Assembly (NCBI GenBank): GCA_040219255.1
Contig: JAVJSW010000001.1
Span: forward strand, 32,001-96,000
Direction of reading: 5' to 3'
Source: Sumerlaeia bacterium
GTDB taxonomy: Bacteria > Sumerlaeota > Sumerlaeia > SLMS01 > JAHLLQ01
DNA: 64,000 nucleotides
In this document: positions 27,070 through 42,977 of the stretch, piece by piece
How positions within the stretch are numbered: the first letter of the stretch is position 1
Layout of the letters: the number at the start of each line of letters is the position of its first letter
The notes under the pieces: model-generated
Told to the model about the DNA's origin: nothing
Databases searched by the model: none
Seen by the model: only the letters and a program-made list of their open reading frames with translations
Translations under genes and position numbers: made by a program

Positions 27070-29241
27070 GTGCCAGTTGACGAACGCGACCGGGAGACCG
27101 TTACTACAGTCCTGAATGGCGTTCGGAGGCCTCCCGCAATTTTCCCTCGTTCTCTGTCTCTTCTTCACTTACGGAAATTCTGCCTCCTGACTGCGACCGC
27201 TCTCCTGCCGGCTGCGGCGGCGTGGCCGGGCGAGGGTCTCACGGCCCAGGCGCAATGGACCGGCGCGACCAGCGGCCTGCAGCTCGGCATGGCCTTGGCC
27301 GGCGTCGGCGATTTCAACGGCGACGGCCTGATGGATTTCGCCGCCGGGGCGCCCGGCTTCGACGCCGATACGGGGGCTGCGGGTCTGATCCTCGGCGGCA
27401 CCAGTTCTCTTCCGAACCCCATCGGGCCGGATACGCTGACCGGCGCCAACGGCTTTTGGGCCCGCGCCAGCGACCCCCGCGAGCGGGCCGGAACCGACGT
27501 GGCCGCCGCCGGTGACGTCAACGGCGACGGCTTCGCCGATTTGCTCATCGGATCGGCCTACGCCCGGGGCTTCCGGGGCGCCGCTTACCTGATCTTCGGC
27601 AGCGCCGCCGCCTTTCCCCGCGCCTTCGAACTCGACCTCATCGGCGCACGCCAGGGCACCGCCGAAATCACCCTCGGCACAGTCATGCCGGGCGATACGC
27701 TGAGCGACCGCATGGGCACCGCCGTGGCGGGAATCGGCGACTTCAACGGCGATGGCTACGGCGATTTCGCCATCACGGCGGCACTGGCACAGGTGGGGGA
27801 CGAGATTTTCGCCGGCCGGACCTTCGTGCTCTTCGGCCGCGAGAACTTCACCGGTCAACTCTCGCCCTTCGACTTGCTCCCCGCCCGTGGCGGCGACGGG
27901 TCCGAAGGCTTCGTCCTCAATGGCGCCTTGTCTTACGATCAAGCCGGGCAAGCCATCGCCGGTCTTGGCGATATCAACGGCGATGGCTTCGCTGATTTCG
28001 CCGTGGGGGCCCCCTATACCGACGCCACCGATCTGGGCACGGAAGGCAAGGTGTTCGTCCTATTCGGCCGGCCAAGCGTCCTGATGCCCGAGTCCACCCT
28101 CGGCGCCCTCTCCCCCGCCGAAGGCTTTGTCGTCGCCAGTTCCATCCCCGAAGACCGCATCGGGTTCGCCGTCGCCGCTGCTGGCGACGTCAACGGCGAT
28201 GGGCTCGAAGATTTCCTGATCGGCGCCCCGCGCGCCGACGGACGAGACGGCGCCCTGGTGGCCGCCGGAAAGGTCTACATCGTCTTTGGCCGCAGCGTCT
28301 TTCCCTCGCGCATCGATGCCGCAGCGAGCCTGCTCAGCATGGAGGGCGCCAGTGATCAGGACTTCTTTGCCCAGGCCGTGACCGGAGTGGGCGATTGGAC
28401 CGGCGATGGTTTCGCGGATATTCTGATCGGCGCGCCCCGCGTGGACTCGCCAGATCGCCTGCTGCTGGAATTGGGGCAGACCGCCCTCATCCCTGGCGCC
28501 GCTTCGACCGGTGCTATTGGGCCAATCGCGTCCACCCTGACCGGTACCGCCGAGCGCAGTCTCCTGGGACAGAGCCTCGCCCTGATCGGCGATCACGATG
28601 GCGACGGCCGCTTCGCTTTCCTGGCCGGAGCCCCCACCTCCCCAGGCCAGAACGCTTTGCCCCAGGCGGGCGCCGTTATCGTCGTTAGCGAACCCGCAGG
28701 CCTCGCGGCCGACGGCCAACGCGTGCTCTCGCCCGCAAACGCCGCGTTCCTGCCGGTGGGTTTTGCTGGCGGGGCCAGCGCCATCGCACCCCGCACCGCT
28801 CTCCACGCCCGCGCCATCGGAGGAACGACGCCGGTAACCCTCAACGCCCGCCGCGAAGCCCAAGCCCCACGGAACCTGCCCGATGCGACGCCGGTGCGGT
28901 GGCGCCTGGAAGCAAGCGATCCGGCGCGGCGTCTGGAAATCCGCGTGGCGTTGACCGCCGCCGAAGTCGCCGGACTCCTGGAGTCGCGGCTGGCCCTCTT
29001 CTCGGCACCCGCCGAGGACGGGCCCTGGACGCCAGTCGCCGGAGCGGTTCGCGTCGGCGGCCGCCTGCAATGGCAGGGAACCGTGACCGCGACCCCCGTC
29101 TGGCTCGCTATCGCAGAGCGCCAAAGCGCCGTCGTGCGACAGGAAATCGTCCGCTTTCTCCTCGGCATTCAGGCCTACCGCGACGCCCTCGACGTAAACC
29201 GAGATGGCGTCGTGGACAGCGCCGACATGACCGGTTTGTAG
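27070..29241 (+). CDS. Secreted integrin-alpha/FG-GAP beta-propeller protein with C-terminal dockerin-like Ca-binding tail
   Basis: Seven GDxxGDG...GAP-type repeats; signal-like RKFCLLTATALLPAAAA; tail LDVNRDGVVDSAD. Start uncertain. Confidence 0.85.
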   Translation: MPVDERDRETVTTVLNGVRRPPAIFPRSLSLLHLRKFCLLTATALLPAAAAWPGEGLTAQAQWTGATSGLQLGMALAGVGDFNGDGLMDFAAGAPGFDADTGAAGLILGGTSSLPNPIGPDTLTGANGFWARASDPRERAGTDVAAAGDVNGDGFADLLIGSAYARGFRGAAYLIFGSAAAFPRAFELDLIGARQGTAEITLGTVMPGDTLSDRMGTAVAGIGDFNGDGYGDFAITAALAQVGDEIFAGRTFVLFGRENFTGQLSPFDLLPARGGDGSEGFVLNGALSYDQAGQAIAGLGDINGDGFADFAVGAPYTDATDLGTEGKVFVLFGRPSVLMPESTLGALSPAEGFVVASSIPEDRIGFAVAAAGDVNGDGLEDFLIGAPRADGRDGALVAAGKVYIVFGRSVFPSRIDAAASLLSMEGASDQDFFAQAVTGVGDWTGDGFADILIGAPRVDSPDRLLLELGQTALIPGAASTGAIGPIASTLTGTAERSLLGQSLALIGDHDGDGRFAFLAGAPTSPGQNALPQAGAVIVVSEPAGLAADGQRVLSPANAAFLPVGFAGGASAIAPRTALHARAIGGTTPVTLNARREAQAPRNLPDATPVRWRLEASDPARRLEIRVALTAAEVAGLLESRLALFSAPAEDGPWTPVAGAVRVGGRLQWQGTVTATPVWLAIAERQSAVVRQEIVRFLLGIQAYRDALDVNRDGVVDSADMTGL

Positions 29242-29246
29242 CCGAT

Positions 29247-29263
29247 CTGGCACGGGTTGTGCA
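29247..29263 (+). promoter_or_regulatory. Sigma-54 (-24/-12) promoter upstream of dps
   Basis: CTGGCACGGGTTGTGCA matches YTGGCACGrNNNTTGCW at all defined positions but one, with GG-N10-GC spacing. Confidence 0.7.
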
Positions 29264-29335
29264 CCTCTTATCCGCACCCAAATCGACACCCGCGGCCTCC
29301 GCGCCGCTGCCGATCCCAACGGAGGACTCAACCAG

Positions 29336-29911
29336 ATGGCCACCAAGAAAAAAACCGACACCAAATCCGCCGCGGCCCCGACCAAGCCCCGCCGCGCCCA
29401 GACCGATATGGAAGAAAATCCGATCGGATTGCCGCAGGATTACTGCGAAGACATGGTGCCCGAGTTGGACAAGCTCCTCTCGACCGAATACACCCTACTG
29501 CACCAGTACCACAAGCATCACTGGCTGGTGAACGGCCCGCAGTTCCGCGATCTGCATCTCTTCTACCAGGAGGCCTACGAGGCGCTCTTCGCAAAGGTCG
29601 ACGACATCGCCGAACGCGTGACACACCTAGGCGGGTTCCCGACCTGCGAACCGGCCAACATGCAGAAGAAGTCGATCATCGACCACGAACCGGAAGGTCT
29701 CTTCTCGGTCCGCGACATGCTGGCTCGCGACAAGGCGGCGGAAATCACCGTCGCGCAGAATCTGCGCAAAATGATCGCCTTCGCCCGCGACCACCAGGAC
29801 TTTGGCACGGTCCGCCTGCTGGAGAAAGTTCTCCTCGGCGGCGAAGACCGCGCCCATCACATCGATCACTTCCTGGAGGAAGACTCGCTGGAAGAAGGCC
29901 GCGAGGACTGA
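29336..29911 (+). CDS. dps: Dps-family ferritin-like DNA-protection protein (DpsA-like)
   Basis: HKHHWLVNGPQFRDLH, DDIAER and AHHIDHFLEEDSL motifs; Lys-rich N-tail; GGAGG RBS. Confidence 0.93.
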   Translation: MATKKKTDTKSAAAPTKPRRAQTDMEENPIGLPQDYCEDMVPELDKLLSTEYTLLHQYHKHHWLVNGPQFRDLHLFYQEAYEALFAKVDDIAERVTHLGGFPTCEPANMQKKSIIDHEPEGLFSVRDMLARDKAAEITVAQNLRKMIAFARDHQDFGTVRLLEKVLLGGEDRAHHIDHFLEEDSLEEGRED

Positions 29912-29953
29912 CTCGCGGGGTTCGCCCCCCACAGGTTTCCCATAAAAATGGCG

Positions 29954-29985
29954 CGCCCGGTCAGATTGTCTGGCCGGGCGTTTTT
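29954..29985 (+). terminator. Intrinsic terminator after dps (possibly bidirectional)
   Basis: cgcccggtcaga-ttg-tctggccgggcg stem followed by TTTTT; an A-run precedes it; lies between convergent genes. Confidence 0.8.
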
Positions 29986-30006
29986 CTAGCCTCCGCCATC
30001 GCGCAC

Positions 30007-33000
30007 TCAGCCCCCGCCCCCACCGACTTGCGCCAGCAAGCCGGTCGCCTTGCGGTGCGCGCCGTCCAACGCCGCGATGATCGCCGACAGCTCATTGCGC
30101 GTCAGGCTGGCGCCCTCGCGGCTTTCCACCAGCAGAAGCGTATCCTCGCGCAGGGCGAAGCTGACCGGTAGAATCTCGGAGTTGAAATCGAGCAGCACCC
30201 GGTACAAATCCGGCCCGGCGGCGCCGTTCAGCGCCCCCACCTCCGCCTCCAGATAGAACCGCTCGCCCTCGATCCGTAGCCGCACCGGCAGGCCGCCGTC
30301 GCGTTCCAGCAGGTACTCGGTGCGAGAGACTTCGCGGACGATAAACCCACTGCCTTCAAGGAACCGGCGCAGCGAACCGGCCTGGTTGAATTCGCCTTCC
30401 TTGGGCGACCAGACGAATTTGTTCTCGCTCGGCGCTGGCGGCGTGGGAGCGGACGCCGGGGCGCGCTCGGGAATCACGGCCATGGCCAGGCTGGTCAGGA
30501 TCTCGTGCAATTGGGCCAGGCTCTCCGGCGGGAACGTCGCCCGCAGATCGCCGGAAATCGGCGCGGGCGCGGCGGCCTGCGGCGCTTCAGAGCGCGTGGA
30601 GGCCGCCTCGGCGAGCGCCGCCTTCAAATCCGCCAGTCCCGTCTGCAATCCCGCCAGGGCCTCCGGCGCGAATTCCGCCCGCACCGGCCGGTCCGATTCG
30701 GACTGCGCCTGGCGCATCGCGTCCAGGGCCAACTTCAATTCCGCCAGCGCTTCGCGCACCGGACCGAGGCTTTCGCCCTCGAGCGTCGCCCGCACCTCCT
30801 GCGGCCCCGTCGGGCGGCTTTGCTCGACCCGGTCCGCCAACTGCGTCAGGCCCCCCGCGATGCCCGCGTTCAGGCCGCCAACGCCCTCCGACAAATCGTT
30901 CAGCACGCCCATGATCTGGGTCATGCTGTCGGCTTGGCCGCCGCCGATGCCGCGGAACTTCTGGTTCCGGCGGAAGGTGTCGCAGATTTCCGCCCAGCGC
31001 TCGCGATCGCCCGGCTGTTCAAAGCCAAACGTCAGCTTGAAATTCAGCAGGTTCGCCTCGGCGCCGGTTGTGAGCGTCTGCGCCTCCTGATCGTAGTGCG
31101 AGAAAATCAGCGTCTTCAGCTCCGCATCGTTCATCACCGGCAGCACCTTCTCCGCCAGCTTGTTCATGTTGCGATAGGAGCCCTGGAGCTTGAACGGCGG
31201 CTGGGTGCGGAATTCGTCGGCTTGGGCGGCGCTCTCGATGTACATTTCGTTGATGCGCAGAATGACGTCGCGCACCGCCATCAGCTTCTTCAGCACGTCC
31301 ACGTATTCGCTGATTTCGGTCGCGCTGTGGTTCGCTTCGAAATCCACGCCTTCGCGCGAACCGGTCTCGGCGATGCGCAGAATACCGTGCAGATCCTTGT
31401 GGCTCTTGGCCGACAACCGCGCCAGCGAGGCGTTCGAGGTCATGGCGTTTTCGATGTAGGACAGTTCGAACGCCGCCCGCGTGTCGCCAATGATGTCGCC
31501 CAGATTATACGTGTCGGCGCGGTTGGCCAGCATGTCGGGAATCTGGAACTTTTCGCCGCTCTCGGTGTAGGGATTGCCGGCCATGATGACGCAGACTTTC
31601 CGCCCGCGCAGGTCATAGGTTTTCGTGCGGCCCTTGTACACGCCCTCGATCTTGCGCTGGGCGTCGCAGAGGCTGATGAATTTCTGCAAGAATTCCGGGT
31701 TACAGTGCTGAATATCGTCGAGATAGATCATCACGTTGTCGCCCATTTCGAGCGACAGGTTCAGCTTCTCCAACTCCTGACGCGCTGTGGCGTTGGGGGC
31801 CTCCACCGGGTCCAGGCTGGTGACGTGGTGGCCGATGGCTGGACCATTGATTTTCATGAAGATAATGCCGAGCCGGTTCGCGATGTACTCCATCAGCGTC
31901 GTCTTACCATAGCCCGGCGGCGAAATCAGCAGCAGCATGCCCATCCGATCGGTGCGAGTATTCGCACCCACCGTCCCCATTTGTTTCGCCAGGTTGTCGC
32001 CGATCAGCGGCAGATAAACCTGATCCAGCAGCTTGTTGCGCACGAAGCTGGACAAGATGCGGGGCTTGAATTCTTCGAGCCGCAGTTGCTCGCGGAAGCG
32101 CTCGGCGCTGCGTTTCTTCGCCTCCTGGAACGTGCGGAACATCGGCCCCACGGTGCGGTCGTAGTGGGCAAGGCGGCTCATGAATTCCGGATAGCTGAGC
32201 CCATAGCGGCCCTCCGCGATGCGGCTGTGCGAACCCAGCATGCCCTCTAATTCCCGCGTGATCGAAGCCGACAGCACGCGCCGCTTCTCGAACGACCCGG
32301 TGAAGCAAAGCACCGCCGCTTCATCCAGGTACGGCCGCAGCGTTTCGGCCTCCTTCGCCTTCTCCAGATACCCCGCCAGCCATGCCCGCACCAGCGCGAA
32401 AGTCCCCACCGGATCGGCCTCCGCACCGGCCAACGTTTCCTCGAAGGCTTTGGCGCCATTGGCCTTTTTCAGGTGTGCGGTGAAGCCCTCGAAGAGCTTG
32501 GCGGCCTCCGGCGCGATCACGAAATCTTCGCCTGCCGTCAGCTCGAAATACAGATACTCAGCGCCTTCGCGGGCGGCCTCGGCGGGAAAAAGGGCCGTCG
32601 TCTCGGCGAACGCCACGAGCTGTTCCTCGAGCGGCGCCAGGAACCGCCCGCGGTCCAGCCGGTGCGGCAGCACCCGCAGAATCGCCCGCACACCCCGGAG
32701 TTGCTGGGCGAGGCGCCCCTTCAGTTCCCCATCGCCAAAGCGCCGGAACCACATCTGCGCGCACGCCCGCGAAGCCGTCGGGTAGCGCAGCAGGCCAACC
32801 GCCTGATTCATCTGCGCCAGCGCCCGCACGATCTTCGCCGCGTCACCGTCGTGGACGCCCTTGACGTAGCCCTCGGCGTAGCGCGGGCTCGCGAACTTCT
32901 GCACCGCGTCCAGCAGCGCCGCGTCCTCCATCACCGCCAATTCGGCCACCGGCGGTTGCGCGCCCGATTCGCTGGCCTTCAGGAACTGATAAGCCAGATA

Positions 33001-35757
33001 TTCGGCGCGATAGACATTATTGTTTTCGGACACGATTTCCTGCGCCCAAACCGCCCGGGTCTCGTCCAATTCCGGATCGGACGCCATTTCATAGAAGTTC
33101 GTTCCGGTGATGTGGTAATAGATCTTGCCATCGCGAATGACCGTCGAAAGATCCAAAGGTTGCGTGTTGACGCTAAATTTCTGTTTTCCGAACTGGATGA
33201 CATCGCCACCGTCGGCGTACAATTCCAGTTTGTCCTTCAGTTGACGAAGGGCGTCTTCCTTGATGGTTTTCAACCGGCTTTGAATTTCGTCGGATTTGAC
33301 CGAGTCGCCCAGGTCCCGCAGTTTCTCGATCGTGTCGCGCACTTTATCAATCATCAAATCGGTGGCGAAGTAACTGTTGATTTCGTCCACCGACTTCATG
33401 CCGCGAGCGCGATTTTCGACGCCCTTCAGGATGCGGTCCGCCGCCCCCTGGAGCGTGACCGCCCGCTTCTGGCGGGCTTCCATCAGCGACGTCTTCTTGC
33501 TCTCGAACGCCTGATAAATCTCTTCCCGCTTGGTGGAAAGCTCCGTCACGAATTCATCGTAATCGGCAAACTTGCCTTCCAGCTCCTCGACCTGGACGAG
33601 TAACTTCGTCAGGTACTCGTCGCACTTCTCCGGTGTGTCGCAAAGGTCCATGAAGTTCACGACGCTCTGGCTGACGAGCTTGATTTGCGATCCGAACTCC
33701 GCGACCGCTTCCGCGCTGCCCAATTCCTTTTTCTTGTTTGTCAAGGCGGCGCGGACCTGATTGACCTTCTGGAAAATCGCGGAAATCGCATCGATGATTT
33801 GGGTCGTCTTCGTCGAATCGTCGATTTTCAAATTCCCGACGATTTCGATCAACAATTCGAGCTGCCCGCTGATTTCGTGAATCGCCTCTTCATGCTCGCG
33901 AGCTTCCGTGACTTTCGTCAATTTCGGAATCGCCGCCTTCTCCTCCGCGACTTTCTCTTCGTAGATATCGAGGGCGTTTGGCTGGAGCAAGAACTCCACC
34001 GTTTTCTCTGAGACCCCGTCGCTCTGCTCGGCGACCTGCTTCTCCAGCGCTTCCACGTGCGGCAAATCCACATAGCGGAGGTCCTTGAGCGAAATCACCT
34101 CGCCGCGCAGCAAACGCAATTCATTCAGCCCCGCCACATAGCCATCCACCGCGGGCCATTGCCGGCCGCGCAGGCTCCCAAGAATCTCTTCCGCTTTCTT
34201 TGTCGTTTCGCGGACTTTCGTTTCCGTCTGCTTGCGAAGCGCCGTGACTTTTTCGAACTCGTCGATGGCCGTGCCGGCGCTCCTGCGGATTTGCTCCAGC
34301 ACTTCCTTTAAATTGAAGAGCTCGCCCTCGCCCACCCAAAAATACGAGTCCGTGATATCCGTGGTGTTCTTCACCAAGTCCAGATACAGACTCTCGTAAG
34401 GCGTTTCGCGGCGGCACAGCTTGATGACTTCCCAGCATTCCGCCATCGCTCGCACAACTTCTTTGTTTCCAATTTTGTAGAGGCGCGAATCGCCCTTTTG
34501 AGGAAGCTCGAAATTCGGCCCCACATACGGGGTCTGCCACACCTGCACGGGATGGTGCTTTTGCGGCTCGATCTGATCGCCGAAGTACACCATTTCTCCG
34601 TTTTCGAAAATCGAATAACCCTGGCCGACAATCGGTGTCGCGACCCGCTGCTCGATCATGTTGTACGACAACAGAATATACACGCCGCTCGCCCTGTTGT
34701 GAAACACGAACAGGTGATCTTCGCCGTTGGCCGATGGCACCCGCCGCTCGAACAGCATTTCCTTCAGACCATGCTCGAACTGCTTGTGCTCGCCATTGAC
34801 CAGGTAATAACCACTGCTAAAGATAATTCCGTGATCGTCCGGCAGAAGAACGCAAGAATGCTGGATCGCATCCACGCGCCGCGCTTCCTTGATCTTGTCG
34901 TTATAGATGATATACCGATGATCTTTCTCCTGGTAAGGCTTGATCTTCAGCAATATCAGCGGCCCCACCACGGCGTAGGAAATCTCGGCGTCGTCCAGCA
35001 CCTGGTCGGCGTTTTCCACCGGTTCCCGATAAATACCCTCACCCGACTCCGTATTGTCTTCCACCTTGATGGTCAAATCCCCGCCAACGGTTTCCACGAA
35101 AACTCGGTCTTCGATGGAAATGTGCGGGTGTTTCCCTTCGCGGTGCAGGTCGCGGTGCGTACGCTTCCAGGTGAACTCGTGCTGCGGCGGGTACTTGAAC
35201 TCGTGATCGCTGCGGTTGTCCAGGTACGTCAACCCGTCCCCCTGAATCGCCCACTTGAAGGTCTTGATGTCCGTCGGCCGCTTGCCCACCTGGAAAACCA
35301 TGAACAGGTGCGGCCCGATAATGGCGAATCGCGAGAACGTCGTTTCCTTGTAATACTTGTAGAGGTTGTTGAAATCCTCCTCGAACCGCTTGTCATCGAT
35401 CAGGCTCAAATCCGCCGTGTGAAACTGGCGCTCCCGGTATTCGTAAACGGCGAAAACGTCCTTGAGCTCCGTCGTGCTCTTCAGACCGAAATGGACATTG
35501 TAGCCAAAGATAAACCGGGTTCCCACCGGCACCATATCGCGGGCGATGCAGTTATGCTCCGTCGTGATCCGCGCCCGGTCCAGGACCTGCAAATCGATCG
35601 AGCCAAAGGTGTCCTTCCGCACCGCGTTCAGCTTGTTGACGCGGTCCTGCAAATCCTTCGCCTGCGCCGCGAGACGATTGCGGATGATCTCGTAGGTGCC
35701 GCCTTCGAGCTGTGCTTGATCCTGTTGCGCCTGCGATTCTTTTTCAACGTCCGCCAT
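30007..35757 (-). CDS. Giant AAA+ ATPase (DUF3686 / so-called 'DNA repair ATPase' family) with C-terminal repeats and a YjfI/CesT-like domain
   Basis: GGTYEIIRNRL N-terminus, long helical middle, Walker A SPPGYGKT, Walker B MIYLDDIQH, AGNPYTESG and LANRAD. 1916 aa. Confidence 0.9.
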   Translation of the reverse strand: MADVEKESQAQQDQAQLEGGTYEIIRNRLAAQAKDLQDRVNKLNAVRKDTFGSIDLQVLDRARITTEHNCIARDMVPVGTRFIFGYNVHFGLKSTTELKDVFAVYEYRERQFHTADLSLIDDKRFEEDFNNLYKYYKETTFSRFAIIGPHLFMVFQVGKRPTDIKTFKWAIQGDGLTYLDNRSDHEFKYPPQHEFTWKRTHRDLHREGKHPHISIEDRVFVETVGGDLTIKVEDNTESGEGIYREPVENADQVLDDAEISYAVVGPLILLKIKPYQEKDHRYIIYNDKIKEARRVDAIQHSCVLLPDDHGIIFSSGYYLVNGEHKQFEHGLKEMLFERRVPSANGEDHLFVFHNRASGVYILLSYNMIEQRVATPIVGQGYSIFENGEMVYFGDQIEPQKHHPVQVWQTPYVGPNFELPQKGDSRLYKIGNKEVVRAMAECWEVIKLCRRETPYESLYLDLVKNTTDITDSYFWVGEGELFNLKEVLEQIRRSAGTAIDEFEKVTALRKQTETKVRETTKKAEEILGSLRGRQWPAVDGYVAGLNELRLLRGEVISLKDLRYVDLPHVEALEKQVAEQSDGVSEKTVEFLLQPNALDIYEEKVAEEKAAIPKLTKVTEAREHEEAIHEISGQLELLIEIVGNLKIDDSTKTTQIIDAISAIFQKVNQVRAALTNKKKELGSAEAVAEFGSQIKLVSQSVVNFMDLCDTPEKCDEYLTKLLVQVEELEGKFADYDEFVTELSTKREEIYQAFESKKTSLMEARQKRAVTLQGAADRILKGVENRARGMKSVDEINSYFATDLMIDKVRDTIEKLRDLGDSVKSDEIQSRLKTIKEDALRQLKDKLELYADGGDVIQFGKQKFSVNTQPLDLSTVIRDGKIYYHITGTNFYEMASDPELDETRAVWAQEIVSENNNVYRAEYLAYQFLKASESGAQPPVAELAVMEDAALLDAVQKFASPRYAEGYVKGVHDGDAAKIVRALAQMNQAVGLLRYPTASRACAQMWFRRFGDGELKGRLAQQLRGVRAILRVLPHRLDRGRFLAPLEEQLVAFAETTALFPAEAAREGAEYLYFELTAGEDFVIAPEAAKLFEGFTAHLKKANGAKAFEETLAGAEADPVGTFALVRAWLAGYLEKAKEAETLRPYLDEAAVLCFTGSFEKRRVLSASITRELEGMLGSHSRIAEGRYGLSYPEFMSRLAHYDRTVGPMFRTFQEAKKRSAERFREQLRLEEFKPRILSSFVRNKLLDQVYLPLIGDNLAKQMGTVGANTRTDRMGMLLLISPPGYGKTTLMEYIANRLGIIFMKINGPAIGHHVTSLDPVEAPNATARQELEKLNLSLEMGDNVMIYLDDIQHCNPEFLQKFISLCDAQRKIEGVYKGRTKTYDLRGRKVCVIMAGNPYTESGEKFQIPDMLANRADTYNLGDIIGDTRAAFELSYIENAMTSNASLARLSAKSHKDLHGILRIAETGSREGVDFEANHSATEISEYVDVLKKLMAVRDVILRINEMYIESAAQADEFRTQPPFKLQGSYRNMNKLAEKVLPVMNDAELKTLIFSHYDQEAQTLTTGAEANLLNFKLTFGFEQPGDRERWAEICDTFRRNQKFRGIGGGQADSMTQIMGVLNDLSEGVGGLNAGIAGGLTQLADRVEQSRPTGPQEVRATLEGESLGPVREALAELKLALDAMRQAQSESDRPVRAEFAPEALAGLQTGLADLKAALAEAASTRSEAPQAAAPAPISGDLRATFPPESLAQLHEILTSLAMAVIPERAPASAPTPPAPSENKFVWSPKEGEFNQAGSLRRFLEGSGFIVREVSRTEYLLERDGGLPVRLRIEGERFYLEAEVGALNGAAGPDLYRVLLDFNSEILPVSFALREDTLLLVESREGASLTRNELSAIIAALDGAHRKATGLLAQVGGGGG

Positions 35758-36149
35758 GGTTGTCTCTCTTTCCCCATTCTGGCCTCGGTGGCCAATTCGT
35801 CATTTTTTTTGGCGAGATAAAGATTGTGTAAGGACAAGGCCGCTGTGGTTTCTTTCCACATAATGATCCAGCGCGAGTAGCAAATTCTCTCGCTTGCCAG
35901 ATAGAGGTACAAAAGCAATCCGGCTATAGTCCCCATCATATGGTATTCTGGATAAACAAGTACCCAAAGAAATCCAACTGTCACTGCGATAGGAACCACA
36001 AAAGCCCATTTGTAACGCTTCCAGTTCTTCCGCGTTTGAAAACAGCTCTTGATAAAAGGAATCTGCTCCTCGGTGACACCTAGCCTGGGATTCACAACCA
36101 ATGCGAGTTCCTGACTGCTTGGTTCTTCGAGTGTGCTGTTGGGTGTCAC
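35628..36149 (-). CDS. AT-rich small 2-TM hypothetical protein inserted in the flotillin operon
   Basis: Two hydrophobic helices, GTG start with AGGAA upstream, about 42-45% GC in two hand-counted 60-mers. 3' end uncertain (A8 tract, 130-nt overlap with the ATPase gene). Confidence 0.6.
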   Translation of the reverse strand: MTPNSTLEEPSSQELALVVNPRLGVTEEQIPFIKSCFQTRKNWKRYKWAFVVPIAVTVGFLWVLVYPEYHMMGTIAGLLLYLYLASERICYSRWIIMWKETTAALSLHNLYLAKKNDELATEARMGKERQPWRTLKKNRRRNRIKHSSKAAPTRSSAIVSRRRRRICRTASTS

Positions 36150-36192
36150 CGAGTACGATTTCCTTTCGGGTCCGGCTGGGCGGTTTGGGGGA

Positions 36193-38307
36193 TTACCCCT
36201 TCTTCACCAGCCCCGGCTCGCCCAGCAACTGGGCCGCCGGTTTGTCGCTCAGGCCCGCCTGCTTCGCGCCGTCCAGCAGCCCTTGCAGCATCGCCTTCGT
36301 TTCCTTCTCCTTCGTCATGCCGATCAGGCGCAGCAGCAGCGCCGACGTCGTCAGGTTCTTCAGATCCGCCGTCGTCACGCCGAAGGTATCGACCAGCTCC
36401 TTGACCTTCACGCGCAGGGCTTCGCCCGCGTCGCTGGTGCCGTTGCCGTTGGGGATGAAAGCATCCCGCAGGCCCGACGCCACGTCGCTGTTCTGCACGA
36501 ACCGGTCGACCGACTTGCCGTAGGAAATCGAGTTCACGATACGATCGAAGAACATCGAGTCGCCGCCGACGATGTCGATCTTGGCGCTCTTCAGGCCTTC
36601 GCGGATCACGCTGGCCTGGGCTTCGGCGATGTCGCGCTGGATCGTGATCTGGGCCAACTCGATTTCCTTGTCCTTGGCCAGGCGCAGCTTGAACTCCTCG
36701 TGCTCGCGGCCCACCGCGTCCAGCTTCTTCATCGCTTCGGCCTTTTGCGTGATGCCTTCCGCTTCCGCGTTCATCTTCTGGCGCATGACTTCCGCTTCCG
36801 CTTCGCCCTGCTTCTGGGTCGCTTCGGCTTTGGCGGCCAAGCCCATCGCTTCCGCTTCCGCCTTCTTCTGGATGACTTCCGCCTGGGCCGCGCCTTCCTT
36901 GGCCAGGGCCGACGCGCGGGCCTCCATCACGCGGACTTCCGACATGCCGTGCACGGCCTCTTCCTCGGCTTTCGCGGCGGCCAGGGTCTTCATCGCTTCG
37001 GCGCGTTGATCGGCGGCCAGCTTGTCCGCCTCCGCTTCCACCTGCACCTGCTTGGCGCGGTGGTCGGCGGCCTGGCGTTCGGCCTCGGCGGCTCTCACCC
37101 GCTTGATCATTTCCTCCTCGGCTTTGCGCTGCGCCTCCACCAGGGCCACATGCTTCTCGCGCTCGGCGCCGGCGTGGGCCTGCGTGTCCTTGATGCGCTC
37201 TTGCTCCTCGACCACCTGGCGCTCCACGACAACCCGTTCGCGGATGACGTCCTGGATGTTCTTGCGCTGCTCTTCGACGCTCTTCTCTTTTTCGATCTGC
37301 GCCAAGGTCACGATGCGTTCGCGCTCGTTTTGCTCCAACTGGCGAGCCTGCTCCACCCGTTCGCCTTCCACAGCGTCGGTGCGTTCCTTCGCCCGCCGGG
37401 CCACGATGACCTGGCGTTCGCGGTTTTGCTCCGCCACTTCCAGCTCTTCCGCCGTCGCGATGCGCGCCTGCTCGGACTTCTGCCATTCCTGAGCCTTCAC
37501 GATGGCCGCTTCCGCTTCCTCGCGGCTTGTCAGGGCGGCGATCTCCTTCTTCTGCCGCTGCTCCGCTTCCGTGCGCTGCCGGTCCAGCTCCAGGATCGCC
37601 TCGCGCGCTTCCACGTCCTGCTGCTTGATCGTCTTCTCTTTATCGCGCTCGATCTTGTTCGCCAGCATCTGCTGCTTCGATGTCAGATCGGTGATCTTCT
37701 TGATACCCTCGGCGTCCAGGATGTTGTCCGGGTTCAACGTCTCCTTGGGCGTCTGCTCCAGGTAATCGATCGCCGCGTCGTCCAGGATGTAACCGTTCAG
37801 GTCCGTGCCGATGATCTGCAGGATCTCGTTCTTGAACTTCTCGCGGCTCGAGTACAACTCGGTGAAGTCAAAGCCCTTACCGACCGTCTTCAGCGCCTCC
37901 GAGAACTTCGCGTCGAAGAACTCCACCAGCGCCGCCGGGTCGCTCGCCCGCTCGCAGCCAATGCTTTGCGCCACTTTCAAAACGTCCTGCTCCGTCTTGT
38001 TCACGCGGACAAAGAAGGCCACCTTGATATCGGCGCGCATGTTGTCCTTACAAACCAGGCCATCCTTGCCCGTGCGCCAGATTTCGATGCGCTTGACCGA
38101 GACGTCGATTTCTTCCAGGCGGTTGAACACTGGGTAATAGAAGCTCGCCGAGAAGACGACTTTCGATCCGCTGCGGCTGGTGATGATCAGGGCTTTGCCT
38201 TGTTTCGCTTTGACCAGGAAGAATCGGGCCGCGGCCACATAGCCGACAATCAGTATCAGGCCGACAAGAAAGGCGATACCGAGAATGAGATAAACGAGGT
38301 CCATCAT
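36193..38307 (-). CDS. Flotillin/SPFH-domain protein (YqiK-like)
   Basis: N-terminal TM, GLVCKDNMRADIKVAFFVRVN SPFH domain, long AEA-rich coiled coil, IDIVGGD tail. Confidence 0.92.
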   Translation of the reverse strand: MMDLVYLILGIAFLVGLILIVGYVAAARFFLVKAKQGKALIITSRSGSKVVFSASFYYPVFNRLEEIDVSVKRIEIWRTGKDGLVCKDNMRADIKVAFFVRVNKTEQDVLKVAQSIGCERASDPAALVEFFDAKFSEALKTVGKGFDFTELYSSREKFKNEILQIIGTDLNGYILDDAAIDYLEQTPKETLNPDNILDAEGIKKITDLTSKQQMLANKIERDKEKTIKQQDVEAREAILELDRQRTEAEQRQKKEIAALTSREEAEAAIVKAQEWQKSEQARIATAEELEVAEQNRERQVIVARRAKERTDAVEGERVEQARQLEQNERERIVTLAQIEKEKSVEEQRKNIQDVIRERVVVERQVVEEQERIKDTQAHAGAEREKHVALVEAQRKAEEEMIKRVRAAEAERQAADHRAKQVQVEAEADKLAADQRAEAMKTLAAAKAEEEAVHGMSEVRVMEARASALAKEGAAQAEVIQKKAEAEAMGLAAKAEATQKQGEAEAEVMRQKMNAEAEGITQKAEAMKKLDAVGREHEEFKLRLAKDKEIELAQITIQRDIAEAQASVIREGLKSAKIDIVGGDSMFFDRIVNSISYGKSVDRFVQNSDVASGLRDAFIPNGNGTSDAGEALRVKVKELVDTFGVTTADLKNLTTSALLLRLIGMTKEKETKAMLQGLLDGAKQAGLSDKPAAQLLGEPGLVKKG

Positions 38308-38313
38308 GGGACG

Positions 38314-39003
38314 TTAGGGCTCCTTGGCGATAAGTTCGGAAGAGGGTAAGGGTTCGATTTGGTAAATGCCCCGGCTTTCGTCTTCGTTGACGATCACAGC
38401 CTGTTGCCGGGCGGCGAGGGTGATGCCTTCGCGGGTTCGCACGTTCAGACGCAGCGGCGCGCCCGTGATTTCGATTTCCGCCTGGCCGATACGGATCGCG
38501 TCCACGGCGGTCAGCGTCGTGCAGATACGCCCCGTCAGATCGCGAATCGTTATCTCGTTCGACTCCCGGGCGGCTTTCGCCAACGGCGCCGTGATCGCCT
38601 TCGTGGCGAAAATCGCCAGGATGTAGGCCACGAACAAAATCACCAGGCCAATACCCGGATCGTGGTTCGGATTCAGGACGATCGTCCCGATCATCGTGAT
38701 GGTCCACATCACCAGGATCAAAATCCCGATCACGATCATCAACGGAACCTGATGGGCGTTGATGAAGGAAAGGAAACCCGACAGAATCCCGCCGCCACCG
38801 CTCCCCCCCTCCGCATCCAGGTCCGCATCCCCGTCCACGCCCGCATCCAGGTCCAGGTCGGCGTCGATTTCCGCCTCCATATCCAGCGAATCGCCACCCA
38901 CGAATCCCAGAATCACGAACAGCCAGTAGGCCACGACCAAGAGCAACGGCACCGTCACGATCAGGTTGATCGGCGCAAAGACAACATTCAGCAACTCAGC
39001 CAT
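38314..39003 (-). CDS. YqiJ/NfeD-like membrane protein with C-terminal OB fold
   Basis: TM helix, acidic DADLD-repeat loop, VPLMI TM hairpin, GQAEI...LNVR OB-fold region. ATG at 39003. Confidence 0.85.
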   Translation of the reverse strand: MAELLNVVFAPINLIVTVPLLLVVAYWLFVILGFVGGDSLDMEAEIDADLDLDAGVDGDADLDAEGGSGGGGILSGFLSFINAHQVPLMIVIGILILVMWTITMIGTIVLNPNHDPGIGLVILFVAYILAIFATKAITAPLAKAARESNEITIRDLTGRICTTLTAVDAIRIGQAEIEITGAPLRLNVRTREGITLAARQQAVIVNEDESRGIYQIEPLPSSELIAKEP

Positions 39004-39315
39004 CCATTTCTCGCTCCTTTCGGCACTTCGCGTTCGCATCCCTTACTTCACCACCGAGAGCCCTATTCACCGCCCCGGCGGAAAAATCGGCGGCGCCCAT
39101 TGATTGCGCCCCTCGATCCGATTTTCGCCCCTGTTTTTTCGCCTCTATTCGTCTCGCCCTTTCCGCCAGTGGTCAAGCTCAGCCGACACCCGCCGAAGCC
39201 TTTTCTTTCGCCCTTTCCCCCTTGACAGATCGGCCCGCCTTGCCTTCCCCTTTTCCCTAGCTCCTGGCTCCGCTCCAACTCGCGGCCCGCCAGGCATAAG
39301 GGAAAGACTCCGCAG

Positions 39316-39420
39316 ATGTTTTTCGCGACGCTCCAGCTTTTGGTTTTCGCCACTGCCCACAAGGCAGAGCGGTGGATCCTGGGCCGTCGCCTCGCCGTGG
39401 TCGTAGTACGAACGCTCTGA
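39316..39420 (+). CDS. ilvB attenuator leader peptide (34 aa)
   Basis: MFFATLQLLVFATAHKAERWILGRRLAVVVVRTL*, with four consecutive Val codons (GTG GTC GTA GTA) near the stop. Confidence 0.85.
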   Translation: MFFATLQLLVFATAHKAERWILGRRLAVVVVRTL

Positions 39421-39509
39421 GACGGGGCCGCCCGCCGGCCCGCCCCTCGGGCCATGCGTCTCAGAGCCGAAAACACCAGCCGCTGACGTCCGTCGGCGGC
39501 CTTTTTGTT
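39414..39509 (+). promoter_or_regulatory. Transcription attenuator (protector hairpin plus terminator) upstream of ilvB
   Basis: Perfect 11-bp inverted repeat gctctgagacg (39414-24) / cgtctcagagc (39457-67) spanning the leader stop. Terminator gccgctgac-gtcc-gtcggcggc then cTTTTTGTT (39479-39509). Confidence 0.85.
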
Positions 39510-39584
39510 GTCACTGCGTCTCCAAAAGACACCACGGCTTTGCGAAACCCAACCCACACCGCCAAATCAAGAGAACCTCTCGCT

Positions 39585-41507
39585 ATGATTCACGAAGAAA
39601 TGTCCCCCGCCACCGAAGACGCCGTGGCTGAAGAATACGCCACCAACGGCCAGGACGTCGCGCTCCGCGCCCCCCACGCCCTCCGCGGACAGCAAATGAC
39701 CGGCGCCGACACCATCATCCAGGTCCTCGCCGACGAAGGCGTCGATGTCATCTTCGGCTACAGCGGCGGCGCCATCCTGCCCACCTACGACGCCATTTTC
39801 CGCTACAACAAGAACCATCAGGAAGACCTCGAAAACCAAATCCGCCTCGTCGTCCCCGCCAACGAGCAGGGCGCCGGGTTCATGGCCGCCGGCTATGCCC
39901 GCGCCACCGGCAAAGTCGGCGTCTTCCTCGTCACCAGCGGCCCCGGCGCCACCAACTGCGTCACCCCCATCCGCGACTGCATGGCCGACAGCGTCCCCAC
40001 CATCCTGATCTGCGGCCAGGTCCCCCGCCCCGCCATCGGCACCGACGCCTTCCAGGAAGCCCCCATCTTCAACATCATGAGCGCCTGCGCCAAGCACACC
40101 TTCCTGGTGACCAAACCCGAGGAACTGGAAGCCACCTTCCGCACCGCCTTTGAAATCGCCCGCAGCGGCCGCCCCGGCCCCGTCGTCATCGACGTCCCCA
40201 AGGACGTCCAGAACGCCCTGATGGAATACCAGGGCGACGGCGTGCTGGAACTGCGCGGCTTCCAGAAGCGCATGGAAAACCTGCGCGCCGCCAAAGTCTC
40301 CAAGAAAAACCAGGCGTCCTTCTTCCAGATGCTCGGCGAATCCAAACGCCCCCTCATCTACGCCGGCGGCGGCGTCATCAACAGCGCCGGAGCCGCCGAA
40401 GAACTGCGCGCCTTCGCCAAGCGCTTCCAAATCCCAGTGGTGACCACCCTGATGGGCATCGGCGCCTACGACACCACCGACTCCCTCAGCCTCCACATGC
40501 TCGGCATGCACGGCGCCGCCTACGCCAACTACGCCGTCGAAGACTGCGACATGCTCATCGCCGTCGGCAGCCGCTTCGACGACCGCGTCGCCGGCAAGGT
40601 TCTCGAGTTCGCCCCCCTGGCCCGCCACATCGCCCACCTCGACATCGACGCCGCCGAAATCGGCAAGGTCAAGAACATCCACTGGAGCCATGTCGGCGAC
40701 GCCGGTGCCGGCCTCAAGATGCTCCGCGAATACGGCGAGCAGATCGACTTCAAGCGCGACTTCTCCGCCTGGGTCCAGCACGCCGCCGAACTCCGCGCGA
40801 ATCACGCCTTCAACTTCGACCGCGAATCCGCCATGCTCCAGCCCTACGAAGTCCTCGAAGCCCTCAACCGCATCACCAAAGGCGAAGCCATCGTCTCCAC
40901 CGGCGTCGGCCAGCACCAGATGTGGGCCGCCCAGTACATCGACTACAAGCACCCCCGCTCCTGGCTCACCAGCGGATCCATGGGCACCATGGGCTTCGGC
41001 CTCCCCGCCGCCATCGGCGCCAAAATCGCACGCCCCGACAAAATCGTCATCAACGTCGACGGCGACGGATCCATCCGTATGAACATCGGCGAACTTGAAA
41101 CCGCCACCACCTACGGCGCCAACATCAAGGTCCTTCTCCTCAACAACGAGGGCGACGGCATGGTGCGCCAGTGGCAAAAACTCTTCTTCGACGAACGCTT
41201 CTCCGGCACCGACAAGACCATGCACACCAAGGACTTCGTCAAAGCCGCCGAAGCCGACGGCTACCGCTTCGCCAAACGCCTCGAACTCTACGACCGCGAA
41301 AACCTCGAGCAAGTCCTCCAGGAATTCGTCGCCTTCGACGAAGGCCCCGCCTTCCTCGAAGTCCGCATCGACCCCGACGCCTGCGTCTTTCCCATGGTCG
41401 GCCCCGGCAAAGGCTACAAAGACATGATCGTCGGCCCCCACATCACCCCCCGCGACGCCGCCGCCGCCCAAGAAGCCAAGGGCGCCGAAGCCGCCGACCT
41501 CTTCTAA
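39585..41507 (+). CDS. ilvB: Acetolactate synthase large subunit (biosynthetic)
   Basis: FGYSGGAILP, EQGAGF, TSGPGATN, GTDAFQE, RFDDRV, GQHQMW and the GDGS...NN TPP motif. Confidence 0.96.
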   Translation: MIHEEMSPATEDAVAEEYATNGQDVALRAPHALRGQQMTGADTIIQVLADEGVDVIFGYSGGAILPTYDAIFRYNKNHQEDLENQIRLVVPANEQGAGFMAAGYARATGKVGVFLVTSGPGATNCVTPIRDCMADSVPTILICGQVPRPAIGTDAFQEAPIFNIMSACAKHTFLVTKPEELEATFRTAFEIARSGRPGPVVIDVPKDVQNALMEYQGDGVLELRGFQKRMENLRAAKVSKKNQASFFQMLGESKRPLIYAGGGVINSAGAAEELRAFAKRFQIPVVTTLMGIGAYDTTDSLSLHMLGMHGAAYANYAVEDCDMLIAVGSRFDDRVAGKVLEFAPLARHIAHLDIDAAEIGKVKNIHWSHVGDAGAGLKMLREYGEQIDFKRDFSAWVQHAAELRANHAFNFDRESAMLQPYEVLEALNRITKGEAIVSTGVGQHQMWAAQYIDYKHPRSWLTSGSMGTMGFGLPAAIGAKIARPDKIVINVDGDGSIRMNIGELETATTYGANIKVLLLNNEGDGMVRQWQKLFFDERFSGTDKTMHTKDFVKAAEADGYRFAKRLELYDRENLEQVLQEFVAFDEGPAFLEVRIDPDACVFPMVGPGKGYKDMIVGPHITPRDAAAAQEAKGAEAADLF

Positions 41508-42118: not shown

Positions 42119-42803
42119 CTACCCCTGCTTGCCCTCGATCAGGCACAGCAGCGTCGCCGCCGCCGCCCCCAGCCGCCGGTCCAGCCAACCGTGCGTGTCT
42201 TGCGAAAAATCCGCCGTCAGCTTCATGAGGAACGGATTGAAATTCTGCTTCATGAACCCCACCGGATGGCCGTTGATCGTGAAGTTGTACTGCTGGCTGA
42301 GGCACGAACAGCGACACAAAATCCACGAACCGCCGCAGCAGCGCCGTCAGCAAGCTGTCTTCCTGGATGATGCCGATGGGCTGGTCGTTCAGGTCCCAAA
42401 TCTGCCATTCATCGCGCGCGATCGACTTCATCCCCATGCGCCGCAGCGCCCCGATCTTCACCTCGGGGCCCGTCGAAACGTCGAAGATGTCGAAGGTCAC
42501 GCCGATGTCGAACACCTGCCGCGCCCGCATCCGCAGCAGCGGCTGGCTCAACGCCTCGTCGCCATACACGGTCAGGTCTTCCTTCAGCTTGAAAGCCTTC
42601 TGCTTGCACTTGAGCAGCAGCTCACCGCTCTCGCTGAAAACATTCGCCTCGGCGCCGAAGATCTTGAAGAACTTCCGCCTAATCAGGAACTTGTGGTGCT
42701 GGAAATGGGGGTGCAACTGGGCGAAGTGGGGCTGAGGAACCTCCGGGGGCATCTGGCCCGGGGGCACGTTTTGCGGGGCGCTGGGCGCGGCTTCCAAACT
42801 CAT
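42119..42803 (-). pseudogene. LURP-one/scramblase-like (Tubby C-terminal-like) protein, frameshifted
   Basis: N-part (QKAFKLKEDL, IGALRR.G.KS..RDEW) is in one frame and the natural-looking C-part (QYNFT...LDRRLG...LLCLIEGKQG*) in another. A tandem GCTG-GCTG at 42292-42299 explains the shift. Confidence 0.75.
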
Positions 42804-42977
42804 AATCGGACCTCGTGTCTCTTTGATAAATTTTTCAGGCTACGAATGCCGATGAAATCGTTTATTCCAGCCGCCGGATCAAGCTGGAAAAGCTCCCACT
42901 TCCCCCTTGCCGCGCACCGGAAATCAGAGTCTATGAGTCACCGATTCGATCCCACAGGAAAGACTAGGCCTCCCCTC

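Follow-up and report, generated by a model that had tools for sequence, protein, structure and literature searches.

What does an ATPase of 1916 residues do directly behind a flotillin-like gene, in a bacterium in whose genome PspA is not found? This question is raised by a set of genes in a stretch of 64,000 nucleotides (nt) from a Sumerlaeia bacterium (assembly GCA_040219255.1, contig JAVJSW010000001.1, positions 32,001 to 96,000), the whole of which is hereafter called the window. To our knowledge, no dedicated energy-using partner of bacterial flotillin (SPFH) scaffolds has been demonstrated. A reading of the DNA letters alone, called below the original prediction, had described four co-oriented genes, coding for a YqiJ/NfeD-like membrane protein, a flotillin, a protein with two transmembrane segments (“2-TM”) and the ATPase, and had proposed that the ATPase assembles or disassembles a flotillin cage in envelope stress or anti-phage responses. 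We retained three of these genes and found that the ATPase belongs to a widespread family linked to flotillin-like genes, that its motor domain is, judging from a structural model, of the MoxR class, and that its last ~130 residues are a YjfI/CesT_Tir_1 chaperone-fold domain, missed in the original prediction, which elsewhere is a separate protein encoded just before pspA.

The unit lies on the minus strand and, from its ORFs (open reading frames) and their translations, comprises three solid genes within 30007-39039: YqiJ-like, flotillin-like and ATPase. It is laid out as follows, in the order of transcription for the genes and then for the parts of the ATPase (residue numbers are those of the protein, lengths in amino acids, aa):

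38314..39003, minus strand: membrane protein of the YqiJ/YuaF (NfeD-like) kind, with a length of about 229 aa if translation begins at the ATG at 39003; the longest ORF runs from 39039.
36193..38307, minus strand: flotillin-like SPFH scaffold protein, 704 aa, with Band_7 found on residues 1-230.
35758..36192, minus strand: AT-richer spacer of 435 nt holding the “2-TM” ORF, as assessed by GC content at third codon positions (GC3), tblastn and Rfam.
30007..35757, minus strand: giant AAA+ ATPase of the DUF3686 family, 1916 aa, identified with Pfam and present as a single copy in the genome.
34339..35655, minus strand: DUF3686 N-terminal domain of the ATPase (residues 35-473; PF12458).
33724..33978, minus strand: DUF7902 (residues 594-678; PF25472), within a middle region (residues ~480-1230) that the conservation profile marks as conserved.
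30958..32070, minus strand: AAA+ module with its lid, predicted to be MoxR-class (residues 1230-1600; Walker A 1279-1287, Walker B DD 1347-1348, sensor-1 N1395, R1413).
30406..30900, minus strand: variable Ala/Pro/Glu-rich linker (residues 1620-1784), marked by a drop in conservation.
30025..30405, minus strand: YjfI/CesT_Tir_1-type chaperone-fold domain (residues 1785-1911), from sequence, profile and fold.
29953..29981, no strand assigned: GC-rich hairpin of 13 bp plus a T-run, between convergent gene ends and just past the ATPase stop codon, from a consensus scan only.

The family of the ATPase is given by Pfam, which recognizes DUF3686 (PF12458) on residues 35-473 with an E-value of 5e-191 (635.4 bits for a cut-off of 25) over profile positions 1-448 of 448, followed by DUF7902 (PF25472) on residues 594-678 (E 7.4e-25, 87.4 bits) and AAA (PF00004) on residues 1275-1395 (29.9 bits); AAA_5 also passes its cut-off of 22, with 23.8 bits. 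The single AAA+ module sits about 1250-1300 residues from the N-terminus, and its core is intact, as had been claimed: SPPGYGKT is found at 1279-1286, YLDD at 1345-1348, AGNP at 1393-1396 and NRAD at 1412-1415, and residues G1282, K1285, T1286, D1347, D1348, N1395 and R1413 are invariant in 17 of 17 aligned homologues. In this alignment, the majority-residue fraction is 0.63-0.80 in DUF3686 and 0.87-0.90 over residues 1261-1440; after residue 1620 the homologues diverge, with a majority fraction of 0.13-0.33 and gaps of 0.18-0.74. As many as 7565 of the 8000 scored 90%-identity clusters match the family at E <= 1e-3. The 120 homologues listed are 50-59% identical to the ATPase of the window and carry PF12458 and PF25472, nearly all of them PF00004 too; those that are named include Planctomycetota, Bacteroidota, Verrucomicrobiota, and Acidobacteriota, and the NCBI name is “DNA repair ATPase”.

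The DUF3686 N-terminal domain is most likely a partner-recognition module. This type of N-terminal region is called a beta-propeller in the passages of PMC11237479 that we draw on; comparing the N-terminal 480 residues with themselves gave no internal repeats, which neither favours nor disfavours a propeller. Searching the PDB with the ATPase sequence returned P-loop-level matches only, with no solved structure of the family, and the ESM Atlas entry gave no usable feature match. The Pfam and NCBIfam domain scans found no DNA-binding, helicase-accessory or nuclease domain in the protein, in agreement with the earlier remark that no DNA-binding or nuclease motif is visible. Reading the tails of homologues by eye, we saw that they vary by lineage, with ankyrin-like repeats at locus L016 and tetratricopeptide repeat (TPR)-like ones at L011 and L018, and that a helical motif of the form ~V-x-K-V/I-P-x-S-x-L-x-V-x(3)-Q-F-x-L-M-x-x-W recurs in many loci of Planctomycetota/Verrucomicrobiota type.

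We then asked how constant the flotillin neighbour is, using the best 80 of the 561 loci confirmed in species-representative genomes, which are the closest relatives, distant branches (e.g., proteobacterial) lying outside the sample; linkage was counted in the 55 loci that hold the N-terminus of the ATPase and at least 3 kb upstream. In 51 of these 55 loci, the gene immediately upstream of the ATPase is flotillin-like and has the same orientation, so that the linkage stated for this family in the original prediction is borne out, and a tblastn match to the YqiJ-like protein lies upstream of the flotillin-like gene in 46 of the 50 loci with room for it. When the flanks were clustered (49 upstream and 51 downstream), only PspA, CesT, a helix-turn-helix (HTH)-S24 regulator and a phospholipase D (PLD)-like protein recurred, each in a minority of loci. 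PspA-like proteins make up a cluster seen in 12 loci, 11 of which have it upstream in the orientation of the ATPase, and CesT-like proteins one seen in 7 (two representatives of each were scanned with Pfam); in loci of Bacteroidota type the order is CesT_Tir_1 (PF22550), PspA, YqiJ, flotillin, ATPase. The co-occurrence with PspA and a YjfI-type protein that had been expected is real in some lineages.

Two of these neighbours deserve a word of their own. Clustering places a divergent regulator with HTH_3 and peptidase-S24 domains (LexA/CI-type, self-cleaving) in 10 loci (L007, L012, L017, L021, L024, L033, L035, L053, L073, and L079), on the upstream side of the CesT-PspA-YqiJ-flotillin-ATPase operon; L017 alone was scanned (L017:4205-4981, minus strand). 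Through this regulator the operon could be linked to a RecA-type signal, and the “DNA repair” label may have come from it. In 7 loci the module also has a small PLD-like (PLDc_2) gene in its vicinity, whose place and orientation change from one locus to another, with L033:4225-4917 the only one scanned, which agrees with the phospholipase D reported near the module in some Proteobacteria in the relevant passages of PMC11237479.

The flotillin-like protein itself escapes the usual annotation tools. Its 704 residues comprise an N-terminal hydrophobic anchor (read from the sequence), the SPFH domain at 34-173, a helical region of ~350 aa rich in Glu, Ala, Lys, and Arg, and a conserved C-terminal part, in which IDIVGG (577-582) precedes a tail of ~120 aa that is conserved too. 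At full length, Pfam matches none of the 28 family members (the window protein and 27 orthologues, A9), and the last 169 residues of the window protein match no Pfam family; scanned alone, its first 230 residues do match Band_7/SPFH (PF01145) at 34-173, with an E-value of 5e-12 and 46.7 bits for a cut-off of 23.6. This masking probably comes from the long helical stretch rich in Glu, Ala, and Lys, whose coiled-coil composition may suppress matches, and the protein may well be related to the flotillin domain. As a consequence of this blindness at full length, automatic annotation likely leaves these genes “hypothetical”. The protein scores 15.1 bits against the FloT equivalog (NCBIfam NF058507), far from its cut-off of 700, and a PDB sequence search with it gave nothing; its 27 orthologues are 36-60% identical over its whole length.

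For the YqiJ-like protein, the ATG at 39003 is preceded by AAAGGAG and matches the MxELL start of the orthologues, so that translation likely starts at 39003 rather than 39039. The predicted YqiJ/NfeD-like identity is made probable by its relatives: the window protein scores below the YqiJ_N (PF21001) cut-off of 23 (E 0.014, 16.1 bits), and 15 of its 26 positional orthologues match that family (E <= 0.01, best E 3.6e-8), as against 1 of 26 for the NfeD family of Pfam. A PDB sequence search with the window protein gave nothing, and the orthologue profile has YuaF (2k14) as its sole PDB match, a weak one (E 0.063) over the C-terminal part.

Which kind of motor does the ATPase carry? We modelled residues 1200-1640 (model m4e873ca8fa0f, predicted local distance difference test, pLDDT, 77.7) and compared the model with known structures. 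Foldseek placed NorQ, RuvB, and CbbQ on top at E ~1e-7, with MCM and Lon alongside. VIA-align gave CbbQ2 (6l1q) a Z-score of 16.5 over 250 residues (root-mean-square deviation, rmsd, 4.1) and NorQ 15.5-16.5, with 231-250 aligned residues and an rmsd of ~4 Å for these matches; Rea1/dynein came lower (Z ~13), as did ClpA/B and Rubisco activase (~12), and RuvB was not among the 50 matches listed. The model also has a beta-hairpin ahead of the sensor-1 strand. Because of the VIA-align ranking, with which the AAA_5 match agrees, we assign the modelled motor domain to the MoxR class (CbbQ/NorQ). We do not read it as a classic-clade unfoldase of Vps4/Cdc48 type; in VIA-align, MoxR proteins score clearly above Rea1/dynein and ClpA/B. 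The likeness to MoxR-class proteins (CbbQ, NorQ, RavA) lies in this module, which superposes best on CbbQ2 and NorQ; the window protein differs from them by its 1916 residues, 1230 of which precede the motor, by its DD Walker B, by its flotillin neighbour and by the absence of a VWA partner among the proteins scanned.

The most unexpected part of the ATPase was its C-terminal end. Pfam's CesT_Tir_1 model (PF22550) touches residues 1825-1898 below its cut-off of 27 (17.1 bits, 21.6 in the genome search), and PF09938 (DUF2170) has no match in the genome. A filter-free phmmer search with residues 1780-1916 against 1.84 billion representatives returned 28 matches, the best of them free-standing proteins of 133-159 aa (E 3e-12 to 1e-5, 35-40% identity); 13 of the 22 small tail relatives scanned pass the PF22550 cut-off, and one of their cluster-mates is named YjfI (DUF2170) by its source. 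In hhalign, a tail alignment of 24 sequences matched the operon-encoded CesT_Tir_1 proteins of the 7 loci (A3) with a probability of 80.6% (E 1.3e-5), where an earlier alignment of 3 sequences had reached 40% only. The model of the tail is of good quality (pLDDT 88.5, predicted TM-score 0.82), with the strand block ahead of the second helix split into four strands, and Foldseek matches it to ExsC, SpcU, SicP, YbjN, CesT, and P. aeruginosa BacA (8q8o), with TM-scores of 0.6-0.7 and E-values of 1e-5 to 1e-3. As the transitive sequence search, the profile comparison and the fold converge, we conclude that the last ~130 residues of the ATPase are a YjfI/CesT_Tir_1 chaperone-fold domain; the motifs LNTEILPVS and ESRE are conserved across its fused and free forms.

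The free forms have a telling neighbour. In 80 metagenome loci that encode free-standing tail relatives, 63 of which have at least 500 nt downstream, pspA follows on the same strand in 61 of the 63, with a median gap of 41 nt; neither flotillin nor ATPase was found within the flank of any of these loci. The fused form is rare. A hidden Markov model built from the 7 CesT_Tir_1 proteins of Bacteroidota-type loci found no tail in 195 ATPases, being too narrow, and tail detection then relied on the deeper alignment (A6) and on Pfam's own model: among the 195 ATPases, only P0001, P0006, and P0087 carry the tail, to which the ATPases of genomes G023, G027, and G029 must be added. In G027 the ATPase is spread over contigs C161 and C116 (N-terminal frame of 792 aa and C-terminal frame of 1228 aa), an assembly break and not a split gene. 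The tree was built from the first 1650 residues, tails excluded, with FastTree (LG+gamma) and midpoint rooting, on 76 sequences: the 6 under study, 45 locus proteins (the first ones with a length of 1600 aa or more) and 25 drawn at random from the rest, which leaves out ~120. The five tailed ATPases with a complete sequence form one clade in it, with a support of 0.999, which argues that the fusion arose once.

The lineage that fused this domain is also one in which PspA is not found. With 14 candidates scored, PF04012 (PspA) has no match in the genome of the window, whose 83 contigs total 5.35 Mb at a completeness of 92%; Snf7 and DUF2170 have none either, and the sole CesT_Tir_1-like sequence of the genome is the ATPase tail. 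Of the phylum's 44 genomes with a completeness of 90% or more, 5 have the ATPase and 19 have PspA; the order of the window counts 12 genomes, this one included, with PspA in none and the ATPase in 4, all four with the tail. The PspA-less variant announced by the original prediction thus holds at the locus, in the whole genome and in the whole order. The only ATPase-bearing genome of the phylum with PspA, G004, has it on another contig, and both the tail and its free relative are absent there. One has to bear in mind that, since these genomes are kin, fusion and PspA absence at the level of the order amount to effectively one evolutionary event and not four.

How much of this was already known? 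The flotillin/ATPase gene set has been described computationally by Ravi et al. 2024 (PMC11237479), and abbreviated operons without PspA are widespread according to the same source, of which we draw on passages. The set in the window has the same three proteins in the same order, and the full form with PspA is reproduced in the Bacteroidota-type loci of our survey; the difference lies in the absence of PspA from the genome and its order and in the CesT/YjfI-type domain fused to the C-terminus of the ATPase. Compared with the published module, the YjfI/CesT fusion, the MoxR assignment and the PspA-less state at the level of genome and order are new here: we did not find these three additions in the passages of PMC11237479 or by full-text searches of the literature, and the supplementary tables of PMC11237479 may list the fusion.

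As far as the sections used here go, the only relative with any experimental data is bacABCDEF of P. aeruginosa (PA3732-PA3727; Mace et al. 2008, PMC2587700; PMC10948618, 2024), whose genes are transcribed together, as one transcript by reverse-transcription PCR (RT-PCR). In these two sources, BacA, whose crystal structure is 8q8o, belongs to the DUF2170/YjfI proteins and adopts a type III chaperone fold, BacB is PspA, PA3730 is a 23-kDa membrane protein, PA3729 has 76 kDa and PA3728 is listed as “ATPase”. The phenotypes they report are defects in biofilm, rhamnolipid, swarming, and virulence, along with osmotic induction and a putative sigma-54 site; in the parts consulted, phenotypes are published for bacA and bacB, not for the ATPase. 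Gene order and sizes fit the set of the window, with BacC-E matched by description only and not by family, and BacA (8q8o) is a fold match of the window tail (TM-score 0.69). Unlike bacABCDEF, the window has neither PspA nor a free BacA, and no sigma-54-like site is found in 39040-39400. In E. coli yqiJK and B. subtilis yuaFG/floT (Hinderhofer et al. 2009, PMC2636767), as in the window, the gene just ahead of a flotillin-like SPFH gene codes for a small membrane protein whose C-terminal domain is beta-rich, a feature that in the window protein is putative; the flotillin of the window differs in being longer (704 aa), in not being a FloT equivalog and in having an extra conserved C-terminal tail, and a giant ATPase is added. 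PMC2636767 does not mention an ATPase.

Two more distant systems offer an analogy, with a chaperone fold beside a ring ATPase in the one and an ATPase dedicated to a membrane-bound polymer in the other. Class I chaperones of type III secretion dock on the export ATPase, and Vps4 acts on polymers of the ESCRT-III/PspA type. The window differs from both: it has no secretion system, its motor would be MoxR-class and neither RecA-like nor Vps4, and the polymer would be SPFH rather than ESCRT-III.

Turning to the locus itself, the unit is bounded by a divergent gene for a thiamine pyrophosphate (TPP) enzyme (39372-41507, plus strand) and by a convergent FG-GAP gene, and the neighbouring genes in the window are housekeeping ones. 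The four co-oriented genes of the original prediction come down to three, all on the minus strand, as the “2-TM gene” has to be dropped. Its ORF (35628-36149) has two hydrophobic stretches and overlaps the start of the ATPase by 130 nt; its GC3 is 0.575 (0.54-0.575 for the spacer), where 11 real genes of the window range from 0.78 to 0.86; tblastn finds no match to it in the 80 loci of other genomes or in 4 loci of the same phylum; Rfam gives no match on 29000-40000, spacer included. The flotillin and ATPase genes abut, with no spacer, in the two closest relatives with intact loci. Given the overlap with the ATPase, the odd GC3, the lack of homologues in 84 loci and the relatives without spacer, we consider that this ORF is probably not a gene and that 35758-36192 is probably non-coding or a lineage-specific remnant. 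Elsewhere, flotillin-ATPase gaps of more than 400 nt (L002, L017, L018, L040, L061, L071, L073, and L080) hold unrelated ORFs that differ from one locus to another, and the junction seems to tolerate insertions.

Overall GC falls to 0.53-0.57 at 33000-36000, and a lateral transfer, which this low GC had suggested, was rejected: GC3 is 0.69-0.79 in that interval and 0.69-0.88 along the ATPase gene, similar to its neighbours. As GC3 stays high, the dip comes from the amino-acid composition of the conserved N-terminal half and not from a foreign origin. Native GC3, cross-phylum conservation and the full-length identity of orthologues together argue for a flotillin-ATPase pair that has long been held and constrained. 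Regulatory sites were less informative: in the consensus scans, promoter-like sites were not above chance, terminator-like sites overall were not either (15 found versus 12.2 expected), and the sigma-54 consensus had 21 matches versus 27.9 expected, none of them upstream of the operon. Further along the window, an ORF on the plus strand (42129-43595), whose start is probably internal, has an N-terminal methylation motif and a segment like protein G of type II secretion systems (pilin/pseudopilin type) at residues 285-349.

What, then, might the pair do? We observed that the genes are linked, which domains they encode, that the tail is fused and that PspA is absent, and we read this as an ATP-driven remodelling of the flotillin scaffold (or of what the scaffold holds) that would be independent of PspA, with the tail taking part in client handling by the motor instead of being a chaperone reserved for PspA; we give this reading an even chance. 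The flotillin-like protein would be anchored in the cytoplasmic membrane and, as other SPFH proteins do, build a scaffold along the inner face by oligomerising through its long helical stretch, with the YqiJ/YuaF-like protein as its presumable usual small membrane partner. The 1916-aa cytoplasmic ATPase would be the dedicated motor of this scaffold, its oligomeric state being a ring that, by analogy with CbbQ, NorQ, and RavA, would remodel a protein complex and not DNA. Its AAA+ module would be held on a long conserved arm and would make physical contact with partners through the N-terminal DUF3686 domain and the variable C-terminal tail. By analogy with type III secretion chaperones, the YjfI/CesT-type tail, elsewhere a separate protein encoded before pspA, would be the binding site for a client or adaptor; in the absence of PspA, either flotillin or some protein that the scaffold holds would serve as client. 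The direction of remodelling could be either, ATP turnover serving to assemble, release or recycle the scaffold, and the trigger would be membrane stress.

Several points weigh against this reading. Gene linkage is silent on whether flotillin is substrate, anchor or regulator. No flotillin is found within 10 kb of the ATPase in 4 of the 55 loci (L011, L015, L029, and L050), and the YqiJ-like gene is not present in the two closest relatives, which makes its product look dispensable. MoxR-class motors usually pair with a VWA-domain partner and are ~250-500 residues long; Pfam finds no VWA family, either in the proteins of the operon or in 19 ORFs around it. The Walker B is DD rather than hhhhDE, both aspartates being invariant (D1347/D1348, 17/17), which may point to hydrolysis that is slow and switch-like and not to a processive motor. 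That PspA is absent is judged from genomes with a completeness of 90-97%. Finally, the free YjfI homologue BacA acts as a negative regulator of its operon according to the portions of PMC10948618 cited here, and the fused domain could for that reason be regulatory rather than client-binding.

Other readings have to be set beside it. The boldest, which we hold only tentatively, makes flotillin and the MoxR-class ATPase a self-sufficient, PspA-independent membrane-remodelling machine, in which the motor would be the assembler/disassembler of the flotillin cage, in a Vps4-like role, and the tail a client-loading site; if this were true, free YjfI/BacA beside PspA would hand a membrane-binding polymer to this motor. 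Conversely, flotillin may only localise the motor, the real client being another membrane or peripheral complex held by the CesT-like tail. We find this unlikely. In its favour, the closest structural relatives are CbbQ, which acts on Rubisco, and NorQ, which acts on nitric-oxide reductase; tails that vary by lineage would fit exchangeable client adaptors; and SPFH scaffolds are generally known to corral other proteins, such as HflK/C with FtsH. However, no candidate client gene is conserved beside the pair in the flanks clustered above, no VWA partner was found, and the conservation of flotillin and ATPase along their full lengths fits a direct co-adaptation. That the fused domain would be autoinhibitory or regulatory, silencing the motor or the operon as long as the membrane is not under stress, appears rather improbable to us, although a bacA mutant of P. 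aeruginosa PA14 accumulates BacB-F 6- to 13-fold, which its authors read as negative control (PMC10948618, in the part used here), and regulators with a type III chaperone fold (ExsC, YbjN, AmyR) are among the fold matches of the tail. A domain tethered to a cytoplasmic protein of 1916 aa is poorly suited as a free transcription regulator, and the conservation of LNTEILPVS and ESRE in both forms suggests that the fused and the free domain share the same binding function.

Two readings move away from the scaffold altogether. One is defence against phages, with or without abortive infection, by a system that would sense the membrane or damage it, a role which the original prediction had left in play and which we now consider quite improbable. 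The ATPase has a patchy distribution (5 of 44 genomes in the phylum, 4 of 12 in the order), and defence-type genes stand beside it in 2 of the 4 flotillin-less loci, L050 and L011. In L050 (3198-9365), a Wadjet-like set on the opposite strand (JetD_C, an MksB-like protein of 922 aa, MksE, and an ORF of 433 aa) lies between a DUF3686 fragment of 229 aa and an intact ATPase of 1842 aa, which looks like a defence island inserted together with a duplication of the 5' end of the ATPase gene; L011 has a STAND NTPase with TPR, plus DUF4258, while L015 has a cytosine methylase and L029 an Uma2 nuclease-like gene. Against defence, the ATPase has only P-loop-level noise in PADLOC-DB 2.0 (mad8, 16.9 bits; IetA, 16.0 bits; E ~1e-3), where the three remaining proteins match nothing. 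The genes nearby are housekeeping ones, GC3 shows a native codon usage, and defence genes do not usually keep an identity of 50-59% between phyla along 1600 residues. An effector domain (nuclease, protease, pore) is not seen, and the PLD-like neighbour is only occasional (7 loci by clustering, one scanned). The part of the earlier claim that concerned phages is thus unsupported. The other reading, a DNA-repair ATPase, is the one conveyed by the names in Pfam (DUF3686, “ATPase involved in DNA repair”) and at NCBI, and it is hardly credible. It has for it these names themselves, a P-loop-level similarity to RuvB, which is among the Foldseek matches, and the divergent HTH and peptidase-S24 regulator (10 loci by clustering, one scanned); it has against it the domain scans, which returned nothing of a DNA-binding, helicase-accessory or nuclease kind, VIA-align, which favours MoxR proteins (Z 15.5-16.5) with RuvB outside the 50 matches listed, and the nature of the constant partner, a membrane scaffold. 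A full-text literature search on “DUF3686” came back empty, so that we found no experiment behind the name, and we regard “DNA repair ATPase” as a probable mislabel, for which we found no support.

With thousands of ATPase clusters in many phyla, the flotillin-ATPase pair is one of the most conserved candidates for a dedicated energy-using partner of bacterial flotillin scaffolds. Since it persists in a lineage without any PspA, the module is not simply an accessory of the phage-shock response, and the fusion found here argues that the YjfI/CesT-type protein and the motor work as one unit. There is, in addition, a reason to correct the database name of a widespread family. The fusion and the absence of PspA turn an association between neighbouring genes into specific questions of binding, namely whether the tail binds flotillin and, in species that have it, PspA.

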